Shown here: positions 6,145 to 8,721 of the stretch, piece by piece
Position numbering within the stretch: the stretch's first letter is position 1
How the letters are laid out: each line of letters starts with the position of its first letter
Assembly (NCBI RefSeq): GCF_003991155.1
Contig: NZ_CP031295.1
DNA from: Escherichia coli
Lineage (GTDB): Bacteria > Pseudomonadota > Gammaproteobacteria > Enterobacterales > Enterobacteriaceae
Length of the DNA stretch: 64,000 bases
Reading direction: 5' to 3' (one strand)
Notes under the pieces: model-generated
What the model was told of the DNA's origin: nothing
Databases searched by the model: none
The model's input: only the letters and a program-made list of their open reading frames with translations
Program-made: the position numbers and the translations under genes

Positions 6145-6217
6145 TCTCTTGTATGCAAGGGTGCTTAAACAGTGTGAATTCACAAGTGTGATTTCATAAG
6201 TAATAACTTCTTGATTA
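6145..6217. promoter_or_regulatory. putative second partition site downstream of the small ParB gene
   Basis: 13-mer TGTGATTTCATAA at 6187-6199 recurs exactly at 7260-7272; palindrome TGTGAATTCACA nearby. Confidence 0.35.
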
Positions 6218-6493
6218 TTACGTTAGTGTTTTTAAGTATTGCTCAAGGGCTACTCTGACGATGGCACTTACATTTTTTGGATCTTTACCATTGCGTTTAT
6301 TCCTCAATGCCAGATCTTCTATTGTGACAAGCATGCTTTCACCAAGAGAGATTGTCGTCCGACATTGTTTTTCTGGTTCGGGTTTTTCCGGCGCGCCGTA
6401 TGGTTTATCCGCAAGGCGCTGAGCCAGAGCCTCTGCTTGTTCTACCGTAACTGCAGCTCTGTTTAATGCTTGCTGGCTGGGTTTCTTCACCAT
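6218..6493 (-). CDS. parB: small partition DNA-binding protein (type Ib ParB/ParG-like)
   Basis: 91-aa ORF starting within the ParA stop region in operon arrangement; small basic/acidic protein typical of type Ib centromere-binding partners. Confidence 0.55.
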   Translation of the reverse strand: MVKKPSQQALNRAAVTVEQAEALAQRLADKPYGAPEKPEPEKQCRTTISLGESMLVTIEDLALRNKRNGKDPKNVSAIVRVALEQYLKTLT

Positions 6494-7131
6494 GGGCCAA
6501 ATACCTCATTCATTAAATGTTCAATTTCTGCTCTGGCTGCTGTATTGTTCGTTTCTACTACACCGGTGCCGTTGCTCATGCAATCGCGATAGACTTTTCT
6601 GAAACAAATAACTGAATCCAGGACTTGAATTGTTGGGAATTCTTCAAGATATTCAAGGAATTCTTTTCTCTCATTTCCCCTCAAAACCGGATTGGTTGTT
6701 GCCATACTTTGTAAACAATAAACCTTAAGTTCCGGGTTAAGGTTACGCATTGCGTCTATCTGTTGTTCTAGTTCTGTAAGAGTATCCAGATCTGGTTGAG
6801 AACACTGTAGTGGCGCAATTATTTGATGTGCGACAACTCCACTCGTTATGAATTCCTTTGAGTTTCTTCCTGCGACATCCACTATTACATCATCGAACTT
6901 TTCATTCAGAGCCTGTAGTGTTTGTGTCAGGTTATCAAATTTCTCAACAAGGGTTATTGCTGGTAACAGTCCTGCAGCTTCTCGTTCCGCATGATGTTTT
7001 GCGGCTGTTCGTTGTAGATCTCCGTTTAACAGGCAGACTTCCCTTCCTTTATTTGCGAGAGCAATAGCCAGGTTTGATGCAATGGTAGTTTTCCCTGAAC
7101 CACCTTTGTTCCCACCAACTACAGTAATCAT
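6487..7131 (-). CDS. parA: ParA-family partition ATPase (type Ib)
   Basis: Deviant Walker A MITVVGGNKGGSGKTT at the start placed at the ATG on 7129-7131. Confidence 0.8.
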   Translation of the reverse strand: MITVVGGNKGGSGKTTIASNLAIALANKGREVCLLNGDLQRTAAKHHAEREAAGLLPAITLVEKFDNLTQTLQALNEKFDDVIVDVAGRNSKEFITSGVVAHQIIAPLQCSQPDLDTLTELEQQIDAMRNLNPELKVYCLQSMATTNPVLRGNERKEFLEYLEEFPTIQVLDSVICFRKVYRDCMSNGTGVVETNNTAARAEIEHLMNEVFGPW

Positions 7132-7352
7132 TGCAACCTCATAAATGTGATGTGTGAAGTATGATGATATTTTGACACGGTAACCTGATGTGTCAACATG
7201 CATTCATATTTATGAAGTATGAAATATGTCATATGATGTAATATATATTACTTGTGTTTTGTGATTTCATAACTATGATAGTGCTCAAATTGAGTATTAC
7301 CTTGCAACCAGAAACAGTGATTTACTCAGATTGAGTATTTAAGGGGCTATAG
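7132..7352. promoter_or_regulatory. parC: centromere-like repeat and divergent promoter region between the two partition operons
   Basis: AT-rich region with multiple short repeats (TGATGTGTGAAGTATGA, TGATGTGTCAACATG, TATGAAGTATGAAATATG, TGTGATTTCATAA) upstream of parM and parA. Confidence 0.55.
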
Positions 7353-8324
7353 ATGAACGTATACTGCGATGATGGTTCAACAACAATCAAGTTGGCATGG
7401 AATGACAATGGGAAAATCTGTAAGTCGTTGTCGCAAAACTCATTTCGTCATGGATGGAAGGTTGACGGGTTAGGGATTCGCCAGACATTTAACTATGAAC
7501 TGGATGGTAAAAAATACACGTATGATGAAGTTAGCAACCAATCTATTCTTACGACTCATATTGAGTATCAATATACGGATGTTAACCTGTTAGCTGTGCA
7601 TCACGCTTTACTGAATAGTGGATTAGCGCCTCAGCCTGTATCATTGACTGTGACTTTGCCTATCAGTGAGTTCTACACGAAAGAGTGTCAAAAAAATGAA
7701 CTCAACATTCAGCGTAAAATTGAGAATTTAATGAGGCCGATTCGTCTTAATAAAGGCGATGTTTTCACCATTGAACACGTTGATGTGATGCCTGAATCAT
7801 TGCCAGCTGTGTTTTCTCGTCTGGTCATGGATAAAGTTGGTCAGTTCGAAAAATCGCTGGTAGTTGATATTGGCGGCACTACGCTTGATGTTGGTGTTAT
7901 CGTTGGTCAATTTGACTCTGTAAGTGCCATTCATGGTAATTCTGGCATTGGTGTGTCTTCAGTTACGAAAGCTGCAATGAGTGCATTGCGCATGGCATCC
8001 AGTGATACCAGTTTCCTCGTTGCAGATGAATTGATTAAACGTCGTAATGACCCGGACTTTGTTCGGCAGGTTATAAATGACGAAACAAAAACTGATCTGG
8101 TCCTTAATACCATTGAGGGGGCTATTGCCAGTCTGGGGGAGCAAGTAGTCAATGAGCTCGGTGATTTTCATCATGTGAATCGTGTTTATGTTGTCGGTGG
8201 TGGGGCCCCGTTGATCTATGATTCGATAAAAACGGCATGGCACCATCTTGGGCAAAAAGTAGTGATGATGGAGTCGCCACAGACAGCACTGGTTGAAGCT
8301 ATCGCGGCTTTCAAAGAGGAGTAA
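7353..8324 (+). CDS. parM: ParM/StbA actin-like segregation ATPase
   Basis: Actin-fold phosphate motifs DDGSTTIK and DIGGTTLD; overall similarity to R1 ParM as recalled. Confidence 0.85.
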   Translation: MNVYCDDGSTTIKLAWNDNGKICKSLSQNSFRHGWKVDGLGIRQTFNYELDGKKYTYDEVSNQSILTTHIEYQYTDVNLLAVHHALLNSGLAPQPVSLTVTLPISEFYTKECQKNELNIQRKIENLMRPIRLNKGDVFTIEHVDVMPESLPAVFSRLVMDKVGQFEKSLVVDIGGTTLDVGVIVGQFDSVSAIHGNSGIGVSSVTKAAMSALRMASSDTSFLVADELIKRRNDPDFVRQVINDETKTDLVLNTIEGAIASLGEQVVNELGDFHHVNRVYVVGGGAPLIYDSIKTAWHHLGQKVVMMESPQTALVEAIAAFKEE

Positions 8325-8328
8325 TATT

Positions 8329-8721
8329 GTGGACGATGAACGGAAAAGGAAAAAATTCACACTTTATCTGCATCCGGAAAAAGCTGCAGACTTTCAAACT
8401 TTGGAAGCGATAGAGTCCGTTCCGCGTTCTGAGCGTGGTGAGCTGTTCCGGAATGCATTTATTTCTGGAATGGCGTTACACCAACTTGATCCTCGCCTGC
8501 CTGTATTGCTGACTGCCATTTTGAGCGAGGAGTTTTCAGCAGATCAGGTTGTAACCTTACTCAGTCAGACGACAGGATGGAAGCCTTCTCAGGCCGATAT
8601 CAGAGCTGTGTTGACTGAACTCGGTGCTTTGCAATCTGCTGAAAAAATGCCTCCTTCTGCTACTGATTCGGTGCAGGAGGCAATGAATGATGTGCGCCTT
8701 AAAATGCAAAAATTATTCTGA
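8329..8721 (+). CDS. parR: ParR/StbB centromere-binding protein
   Basis: Follows parM; PRSERGELFRNAFISGMALHQLDPRLPVLL resembles R1 ParR; start placed at in-frame GTG 8329 after the parM stop (ORF track uses TTG 8293). Confidence 0.7.
   Translation: MDDERKRKKFTLYLHPEKAADFQTLEAIESVPRSERGELFRNAFISGMALHQLDPRLPVLLTAILSEEFSADQVVTLLSQTTGWKPSQADIRAVLTELGALQSAEKMPPSATDSVQEAMNDVRLKMQKLF

Follow-up and report, generated by a model that had tools for sequence, protein, structure and literature searches.

The locus at positions 6080-8721 of the 64-kb stretch of DNA analysed here (the window), with parB and parA on the minus strand and parM and parR on the plus strand, is very probably (probability about 0.93) one more copy of the double partition locus typified by pB171, here borne by an F-like conjugative plasmid (IncFIA/FIB). 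It comprises two back-to-back plasmid-segregation systems with one centromere/promoter region common to both. The locus is already known and already explained, being near-identical to that of the well-studied Escherichia coli plasmid pB171, whose par1 and par2 are described as divergently transcribed, with cross-regulation (PMC11950199). The pB171 par1/par2 pair is a textbook module and one of the chief systems in which plasmid positioning by ParA has been studied experimentally, and the present copy carries little weight as a discovery.

The gene identities, the near-identity of ParR to its pB171 counterpart, the repeat anatomy and the conservation of repeats and promoter-like sites were obtained in this analysis. 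Binding, centromere activity, ParA dynamics and cross-regulation are taken from the pB171 literature, and the exact promoter positions and the terminator are our own predictions. The features are listed in Table 1, in which the array names parC1 and parC2 follow their use for pB171 (PMC4270457).

Table 1. Features of the double partition locus (window coordinates).
Feature	Position	Strand	Description
parC2 integrase-proximal cluster	6080..6109	.	four contiguous ParB-type heptads in strict 7-bp register: TCACA 6082, TCATA 6089, TATGA 6096, TGTGA 6103
Likely intrinsic terminator of the parAB operon	6123..6150	-	hairpin followed by T-run; predicted function
parC2 parB-proximal cluster	6173..6199	.	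TGTGA 6173, TCACA 6180, TGTGA 6187, TCATA 6194; holds the 13-mer (6187-6199)
parB	6218..6493	-	91-aa putative centromere-binding protein; flexible N-terminal part, C-terminal ribbon-helix-helix (RHH)
parA	6487..7131	-	214-aa type Ib Walker-type partition ATPase; Pfam MipZ, AAA_31, CbiA
parC1	7132..7352	.	221-bp control and putative centromere region common to both operons
parC1 heptad cluster I	7137..7166	.	TCATA 7139, TGTGA 7146, TGTGA 7153, TATGA 7160
P2, promoter-like site for parAB	7169..7196	-	from promoter scan; putative promoter activity
parC1 heptad cluster II	7202..7238	.	TCATA 7204, TATGA 7211, TATGA 7218, TATGA 7232
P1, candidate parMR promoter	7252..7279	+	predicted; overlaps heptad cluster III
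parC1 heptad cluster III	7260..7280	.	TGTGA 7260, TCATA 7267, TATGA 7274; holds the 13-mer (7260-7272)
ParR box 1, predicted	7284..7298	+	CTCAAATTGAGTATT; direct-repeat family D6; conserved in homologues
ParR box 2, predicted	7325..7339	+	CTCAGATTGAGTATT; 41 bp from box 1; adjoins the parM ribosome-binding site upstream
parM	7353..8324	+	323-aa actin-like partition ATPase; Pfam StbA_N (E=1.6e-64), ParM C-terminal domain (E=4.3e-44)
parR	8329..8721	+	130-aa putative centromere-binding adaptor, GTG start; Pfam Plasmid_stab_B (E=1.3e-29)

Genes of the two partition systems

All four open reading frames were confirmed as first called. The original prediction, in which a type Ib system (ParA with a small ParB) and a type II system (ParM with ParR) are transcribed away from one common repeat-rich region, agrees with the reading frames, the protein families and the extent of the region between the parA and parM starts. 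Its proposed resemblance to pB171 is likewise borne out by ParR and by 98% DNA identity, across parC2-parB-parA-parC1, to the EPEC EAF-type plasmids pMAR2 and p786605_2. Window ParR is identical at 126 of 130 residues (97%) to PDB 2JD3, the crystallised ParR of pB171 (PMC3074162), with the substitutions F10Y, L101S, A104V and Q127K (window to 2JD3), and ParR of pMAR2 and p786605_2 equals 2JD3 at each residue past the GTG start codon. The pB171 identity is thus based on the ParR crystal sequence and on the EPEC plasmids as proxies for AB024946/NC_002142. A longer 142-aa parR frame (TTG 8293) was rejected, as the product of GTG 8329 matches the crystallised protein from residue 1. ParM matches the R1 ParM structure 1MWK with E=2.8e-76.

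For parA, the ATG at 7131 is preceded by a GAGG ribosome-binding site and followed by MITVVGGNKGGSGKTT, and the protein carries the deviant Walker A motif KGGSGKT. A 238-aa frame from 7203 was rejected, because the 214-aa start has the ribosome-binding site and an N-terminal Walker A and equals the annotated start; the longer frame would also span the promoter and heptad region. With parA starting at 7131, the intergenic region spans 7132-7352 (221 bp), the coordinates originally given. The nearest solved relatives of ParA are type Ib ParF/ParA structures, including TP228 ParF (4dzz, E=3e-7).

The parB gene lies directly downstream of parA, its start overlapping the parA stop by 7 nt. ParB scores 21.7 bits against Pfam RHH_1 (cut-off 20.5), and pB171 ParB is classed among the RHH ParBs (PMC13245405). 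An AlphaFold model built on a 4-sequence alignment, of moderate quality (pLDDT 69.8; C-terminal half 73-88), places helices at 52-67 and 75-90 after an extended segment at 45-50 and a low-confidence N-terminus, an order of secondary structure that fits RHH. A Foldseek search of PDB with this moderate model gave no match with E<1, and PDB sequence and profile searches with ParB gave chance-level matches only, plus CopG at E=0.9. Homologues of ParB are 74-84% identical and share an invariant RTTISL segment; parB of pMAR2 and that of the NZ_CP012683.1 plasmid, the latter 100% identical to the window across the double par locus, are annotated with one protein accession, WP_000239529.1. ParB-mediated pairing (PMC3074150) and ParA-driven equal spacing with parC1+/parC2+ constructs (PMC4270457) have been reported for pB171.

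The four protein lengths, the divergence around ~220 bp, the ParB arrays on both sides of parAB and the two 10-bp ParR repeats upstream of parM are all shared with pB171. Differences from the EPEC proxies amount to a handful of point changes in parC1/parC2, a 7-bp parC1 deletion and a 1-nt deletion in the integrase gene. pB171 itself is an EAF virulence plasmid, whereas the window plasmid is an IncFIA/FIB conjugative plasmid of resistance type.

ParB-type heptad repeats on both sides of parAB

A 13-mer, TGTGATTTCATAA, had been noticed both in the central region and downstream of parB; it occurs there exactly as noted, in precisely two copies in the 64 kb (6187 and 7260), with none on the opposite strand. 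This 13-mer corresponds to a single inverted pair of 7-bp units whose core is TRTGA. Both the central region and the sequence downstream of parB hold clusters of such units, strictly in 7-bp register. TRTGA was found 12 times in 7132-7352, where 1.4 would be expected from the base composition of that region (P=4e-8), and 9 times in 6060-6217, where 1.0 would be expected from local base composition (P=9e-7). Adjacent TRTGA pairs spaced by exactly 7 bp fall inside the two par flanks in 13 of 13 cases across the window. In addition, the parC2 region shares more 7- and 8-mers with parC1 than any other segment of the window does, an excess of ~3 sd over dinucleotide shuffles, though a few of these equal or surpass what was seen.

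The original pB171 work reportedly described 6-bp ParB repeats, 17 in parC1 and 18 in parC2. Set against these figures, our strict TRTGA count of 12 in parC1 and 9-10 in parC2 suggests that the published definition is more degenerate. In pB171 the repeat arrays lie both upstream and downstream of parAB, the upstream one having a regulatory role (PMC7602700).

Extent of the downstream array

The second ParB site that had been predicted 3' of parB is supported by TRTGA heptads in the same 7-bp register as in parC1. Its presence stands; its left edge does not, since the putative site begins at ~6080 rather than at 6145. The integrase-proximal cluster, with two leftward units followed by two rightward ones, is conserved at 98-99% in pMAR2 and p786605_2. 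Between the two parC2 clusters lies the candidate terminator, which is terminator-like in a scan and folds with -13.2 kcal/mol (z = -2.7 vs shuffles); an isolated TGTGA (6140) sits within its stem. The adjacent integrase gene is frameshifted and carries the 1-nt deletion relative to the EPEC proxies.

It could be argued that 6080-6154 is outside the par2 centromere and belongs to a ResD-like integrase module, perhaps as its 3' flank or as a site tied to recombination, in which case the TRTGA units would be coincidental or serve another protein. In a spread sample (1685 plasmid matches), about one row in three covers 6060-6154 alone, by a site-specific integrase gene; in pZ0117EC0148-1 that stretch leads into colicin M genes and parAB is missing, and the Enterobacter loci described below have no counterpart of the integrase-proximal cluster. 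We nevertheless consider this reading unlikely, given that four contiguous TRTGA units stand in exact 7-bp register, that no such pair exists in the 64 kb outside the par flanks, and that homology to the colicin plasmid pZ0117EC0148-1 ends abruptly within parC2, as expected of a deletion or recombination remnant. Taking the integrase-proximal cluster as part of parC2, ~95 bp of this array (6060-6154), including its four contiguous heptads, persists on many colicin-type IncF plasmids that lack parAB, beside the integrase gene. Such orphan half-centromeres might conceivably be bound in trans by the ParB of a par2 plasmid in the same cell, leading to hitch-hiking segregation or partition incompatibility, a speculation to which we give little credence.

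Organization of the central region

Cluster I has the -10 element of P2 on one side and the ribosome-binding site of parA on the other, and its block is almost invariant in five loci from three genera. P2 consists of a -35 TTGACA (7196-7191), a 16-nt spacer and a TG-extended -10 CAAAAT (7174-7169); both Enterobacter (TTGACT/CAAAAT) and Providencia (TTGACT/TATAAT) have it at the same position and spacing, with a different spacer sequence. Cluster II lies directly upstream of the P2 -35 element and lacks the 7 bp, one heptad unit, that are found in pMAR2 and p786605_2. P1 has a -35 TTGTGT (7252-7257), a 16-nt spacer and a -10 TATGAT (7274-7279), and both hexamers, 16 nt apart, recur in all five loci; it fell under the threshold in the promoter scan. 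That scan returned 2 sites vs 3.7 in shuffles and by itself is no evidence, so it is conservation in homologues that supports P2 and P1.

Upstream of parM, the 10-bp direct repeat ATTGAGTATT occurs twice (7289-7298 and 7330-7339), and the predicted ParR box 1 includes it together with the palindrome CTCA-N3-TGAG. ParR of pB171 binds two 10-bp repeats (PMC9426499).

Clusters I-III bracket or overlap both promoter-like sites, which would also fit parC2 alone being the par2 centromere and the central heptads being purely operators for parAB autoregulation and parMR cross-regulation, with no segregation role. This appears very improbable: the central clusters match parC2 in unit, register and cluster size (3-4 contiguous heptads), and the two roles are compatible in type Ib systems such as pSM19035. 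Each of parC1 and parC2 was, reportedly, found to support partition in a 2001 PNAS paper, which counts further against a purely regulatory role. For the upstream array one account gives only "putative centromere activity" and stresses transcriptional regulation (PMC7602700), while pB171 test plasmids include both parC1 and parC2 as par2 components (PMC4270457).

Proposed mechanism

With parC1 as both centromere and control region, ParB dimers of par2 would use their ribbon-helix-helix to bind arrays of 7-bp units that have a TRTGA core, in both orientations; parC1 holds three clusters of these units (7137-7280) and parC2 holds two (6080-6199). Once formed, the ParB-DNA complexes would stimulate the ATPase of nucleoid-bound ParA-ATP, and the resulting ParA gradients or oscillation would space plasmid copies evenly over the nucleoid. 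In par1, ParR would bind boxes 1 and 2 and capture the ends of actin-like ParM filaments, by which sister plasmids would be pushed apart. The same DNA region may also control both operons, clusters I and II flanking P2, cluster III overlapping the -10 of P1, and ParR box 1 lying directly downstream of P1. From this placement, ParB should repress its own operon and cross-repress par1, and ParR should repress par1.

Comparison with other partition systems

Like parMRC of R1, the plus-strand system encodes an actin-like ParM and, after it, a small ParR adaptor, and its putative centromere and promoter precede parM. The actin fold of ParM, the ParR adaptor and the upstream repeats place it among R1-like type II ParMRC systems. 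R1 ParR needs 11-bp repeats (PMC9426499), whereas the window locus has two 10-bp boxes, and unlike in R1 the control region is common to a second, unrelated partition system.

The minus-strand system resembles delta/omega-parS of pSM19035 in its small RHH centromere-binding protein and in contiguous direct and inverted 7-bp units that would serve as operators too. The TGTGATT found in the window at 6103, 6187 and 7260 is literally the omega unit WATCACW (AATCACA/TGTGATT), and the window clusters match in size the at least 4 contiguous heptads required in pSM19035 for full ParA activation. pSM19035 differs in its host phylum, its six parS sites and the lack of a linked ParMR. Between ParB and omega a 19-residue alpha-2 match (pairwise E=0.006) was the only similarity, with no significant homology beyond the fold, and omega was not recovered in PDB sequence or profile searches with ParB. 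To judge from these sequences, ParB is omega-like in mode (heptad arrays), yet outside the pSM19035 omega family.

TP228 parFGH is comparable in that ParA is similarly close to ParF and in that the RHH partner has a flexible N-terminal tail; it differs in that its only site lies upstream and no type II system accompanies it. The TP228 site parH is described as composed of tetramer boxes with AT-rich spacers (PMC3130281), as against the heptads of the window. The type Ib par of pESBL (octamer GATAACAA) was rejected as a relative because its repeat and its ParB differ.

Conservation and distribution

Diverged loci of Enterobacter cloacae, E. bugandensis and Providencia rettgeri (DNA identity 68% for Providencia) have the same gene order, heptads on both flanks of parAB, two ParR boxes, and P2 and P1 with equal spacing, while the sequence between the conserved elements drifts (mean column identity 59%). 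The parB-proximal parC2 cluster has a counterpart at an equal position from the parB stop in Enterobacter (four heptads) and in Providencia (eight tandem TTCACAA). Whether the repeats are absent from homologous plasmids, a question raised with the original prediction, is answered by these diverged homologues, in which they are kept.

There is next to no likelihood that two AT-rich intergenic regions came to share the 13-mer and the other short repeats by chance alone, because, although both regions are ~68% A+T vs 48% for the window and two-copy short repeats often arise by chance, the 13-mer is part of a larger repeat system whose pentamer excess survives local base-composition correction at the P values given above, whose exact 7-bp register is exclusive to the two par flanks, and whose motif and register are kept in loci at 68-75% DNA identity.

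The locus is very common. In PLSDB, 981 plasmids from E. coli, Salmonella, Klebsiella and Shigella carry at least 80% of the four-gene region (6100-8760), and among 5426 complete E. coli genomes 734 carry at least 80% of the locus. Many of the PLSDB plasmids with the double par locus are resistance plasmids. The practical value of the analysis lies in annotation: the heptad map, together with conservation across three genera, yields a compact sequence definition of ParB sites, which could serve for annotating such loci and predicting partition incompatibility. Public records call these genes "MipZ", "hypothetical protein" or "CopG regulator", and leave parC1 and parC2 unmarked.

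Relationship to the double par locus of pB171

Reading of the ORF listing and of window positions 6000-8900 revealed two divergent gene pairs, par2 (parA and parB, type Ib) and par1 (parM and parR, type II), separated by a shared central region, parC1 (see table). Pfam matches and ORF reading thus bear out the original prediction of a type Ib ParA with a 91-aa partner facing a ParM/ParR pair. ParM matched the R1 ParM structures (E=2.8e-76), and the closest structures to ParA were type Ib ParF/ParA. A mechanical ORF call had placed the parA start at 7203 (238 aa), which was set aside, as annotation of identical plasmids begins at ATG 7131; this ATG is preceded by a GAGG ribosome-binding site, and translation from it places the deviant Walker A motif KGGSGKT at residues 9-15. 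With this start, the intergenic region is 7132-7352 (221 bp), exactly as predicted.

ParR shares 126 of 130 residues with PDB 2JD3, the ParR of pB171 (PMC3074162), and from its GTG start aligns with the crystallised protein beginning at the first residue. A tblastn search with 2JD3 found plasmids whose ParR agrees at every residue past the GTG start codon, including pMAR2 of EPEC E2348/69 and the EPEC-like p786605_2 (68 kb), which served as proxies for pB171. The window is 98% identical to each of them, with the integrase 3' end, parC2 (the repeat region downstream of parB), parB, parA and parC1 aligned. The parB accession of pMAR2, WP_000239529.1, is also that of NZ_CP012683.1, a plasmid 100% identical to the window across the double par locus. 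In pB171, par1 and par2 are divergently transcribed and cross-regulated (PMC11950199), and repeat arrays lie both up- and downstream of parAB, the upstream array also regulating transcription (PMC7602700); par2 test plasmids carry parC1 and parC2 as standard parts (PMC4270457). Together, the ParR crystal sequence, the EPEC proxy plasmids and the secondary literature support the earlier likeness to pB171 and the assignment of the locus to the pB171 type, a known feature that is already well explained.

Features of the double par locus and the rest of the window
Feature	Position	Strand	Details
IS26 copy	4093-4797		abuts 168-aa ORF
168-aa ORF	4787-5293		overlaps integrase start
Integrase ORF	5290-6144		ResD-like, frameshifted
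parC2 left (integrase-side) cluster	6082/6089/6096/6103		heptads
Hairpin + T-run	6150-6123	minus	-13.2 kcal/mol, z=-2.7
parC2 parB-side cluster	6173/6180/6187/6194		heptads
parB	6218-6493	minus	91 aa; Pfam RHH_1, 21.7 bits (cut-off 20.5)
parA	up to 7131 (ATG), upstream of parB	minus	214 aa; Pfam MipZ/AAA_31/CbiA (ParA-MinD class)
parC1 cluster I	7139/7146/7153/7160		heptads
P2, promoter-like, parAB	-35 7196-7191; -10 7174-7169	minus	promoter scan; TTGACA, 16-nt spacer, TG-extended CAAAAT
parC1 cluster II	7204/7211/7218(/7232)		heptads
P1, candidate parMR promoter	7252-7257; 7274-7279	plus	TTGTGT, 16-nt spacer, TATGAT; conserved in all five loci
parC1 cluster III	7260/7267/7274		heptads
ParR-box palindromes	7284-7294; 7325-7335		CTCA-N3-TGAG
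10-bp ParR repeats	7289-7298; 7330-7339		ATTGAGTATT
parM	7353-8324	plus	323 aa; Pfam StbA_N (E=1.6e-64) and ParM C-terminal domain
parR	8329 (GTG)-8721	plus	130 aa; Pfam Plasmid_stab_B (E=1.3e-29)
ParB/RepB/Spo0J family partition protein	21099-23057		652 aa; leading region, between ssb and psiB
Rfam features	24376-24552; 62724-62882; 28540-28651; 63686-63774		

Heptad repeats on both sides of parAB

The 13-mer TGTGATTTCATAA, predicted to recur in both regions, has two copies only on both strands of the 64-kb window, at 6187 and 7260, each inside a run of heptads in 7-bp register. It consists of a rightward and a leftward heptad (TGTGATT and TCATAA) and is part of a larger repeat system rather than an isolated coincidence. 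When the heptad core TRTGA was mapped on both strands, 12 copies were found in 7132-7352 and 9-10 in 6053-6200, in runs of three or four with a start-to-start spacing of exactly 7 bp. Among 255 TRTGA sites in the window, adjacent pairs exactly 7 bp apart occur 13 times, all in the parC1 and parC2 regions. The excess over each region's own base composition is significant (P=4e-8 for 7132-7352 and P=9e-7 downstream of parB), and a motif built from the central region alone (top 5-mer TATGA, 9 versus 0.43 expected) is enriched downstream of parB too.

A sensitive DNA search recovered diverged copies of the whole arrangement, in the shared order integrase, parB, parA, parM, parR and then umuC or umuDC, from Enterobacter cloacae and Enterobacter bugandensis (each 75% DNA and 84% ParB identity) and from Providencia rettgeri (68% and 74%). 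Absence of the repeats from homologous plasmids would speak against the original reading; TRTGA heptads in 7-bp register flank parAB on both sides in all three diverged loci, and Providencia carries eight perfect tandem TTCACAA units directly downstream of parB. Across the five loci compared, mean column identity of the central region is only 59%, and the invariant columns are concentrated in cluster I, in the two ParR boxes and in parts of clusters II and III. The ParB segment RTTISL, at the RHH beta-strand position, is invariant among the homologues, which fits a conserved DNA specificity.

The heptads strongly resemble in architecture the contiguous, mixed-orientation omega/parS arrays of pSM19035, where full ParA activation needs four or more contiguous heptads, and TGTGATT (6103, 6187 and 7260) is literally the omega-binding unit (WATCACW; AATCACA/TGTGATT). 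Pairwise and PDB searches detected no homology of ParB to omega beyond one 19-residue alpha-2 stretch. Convergence could account for the common unit, as could a very ancient shared origin of centromere recognition by RHH proteins.

Predicted regulation and partition mechanism

The regulatory anatomy was inferred from sequence. The position and spacing of P2 are kept in Enterobacter (TTGACT/CAAAAT) and Providencia (TTGACT/TATAAT), with differing spacer sequences. Cluster I lies between the P2 -10 element and the parA ribosome-binding site, and cluster II adjoins the -35 element. The putative P1 -10 element coincides with one of the cluster III heptads and is followed, 5 bp on, by ParR box 1. 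This layout would explain in simple physical terms how ParB could repress both its own operon and par1, and how ParR could repress its own, a predicted scheme that agrees with published 'regulatory cross-talk'. Transcription of parAB plausibly terminates at the hairpin that separates the left and parB-side clusters of parC2.

pB171 ParR binds two 10-bp repeats (PMC9426499), and the two copies of ATTGAGTATT lie within longer boxes, CTCAAATTGAGTATT and CTCAGATTGAGTATT. Each box also holds a palindrome ahead of directly repeated TATT, kept in Enterobacter and Providencia; each '10-bp direct repeat' may be a dyad-symmetric site.

[quoted passage not shown] ParR on its boxes would catch ParM filaments, which would push plasmids apart.

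Allele peculiarities and plasmid context

Compared to pMAR2 and p786605_2, the window lacks 7 bp in cluster II (TGAAGTG, at 7223-7224), exactly one heptad unit, which leaves this allele a ParB unit short on the upstream side of the promoter-like site for parAB. The integrase ORF lacks one A from the A-run at ~6063-6067 relative to the same plasmids, which shifts the frame 14 nt ahead of the normal stop (TAA 6078-6080), changes the last codons and extends the ORF through the left parC2 cluster (284 versus 269 aa). Since the PLSDB gene table of pSAL4605-1 (99.9% identical over window 1-25000) lists no gene at the integrase position, the ORF may have been treated there as a pseudogene. The integrase 3' part differs from pMAR2 at many positions, mostly third-codon, up to ~5985, and is ~99% identical beyond, suggesting that recombination joined two sequences immediately to the left of the par module (~5950-5990). 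Where the window has IS26 and the 168-aa ORF upstream of the integrase, pMAR2 and p786605_2 carry ccdA/ccdB; the window plasmid thus appears to have no ccd addiction module there.

The window represents an F-like conjugative plasmid, with IS1, rclA, IS26, integrase, the double par locus, umuDC-like genes, a leading region (ssb, psiB/A, hok/sok), the tra operon, finO and CopA. Rfam matches comprise two sok antitoxin RNAs (from two modules of the hok/sok type), a FinP/traJ 5' UTR pair, CopA and four antisense RNAs originally reported from pHK01, together an ordinary F-like backbone set. The 652-aa ParB/RepB/Spo0J family protein was rejected as a third partition system, having no adjoining ParA and lying outside the double par locus.

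The 2.66-kb region 6100-8760 matches 1526 PLSDB plasmids, chiefly from E. coli, Salmonella, Klebsiella and Shigella; a single match spans 80% or more of its length in 981, and 885 match at no less than 99% identity. Positions 6060-8721 are present at ≥80% in 734 of 5426 complete E. coli genomes, and ParA, ParB, ParM and ParR each occur on at least 1000 contigs. Some novelty lies only in the frequent persistence of the left parC2 half beside the integrase on plasmids without parAB. This 95-bp stretch (6060-6154), comprising the integrase 3' end and the left parC2 cluster, occurs at 86-99% identity on many such IncF plasmids, where it may represent an orphaned half-centromere or the scar of a recombination event. 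In pZ0117EC0148-1, homology ends abruptly within parC2, and the next genes after the stretch are those for colicin M immunity and colicin M.
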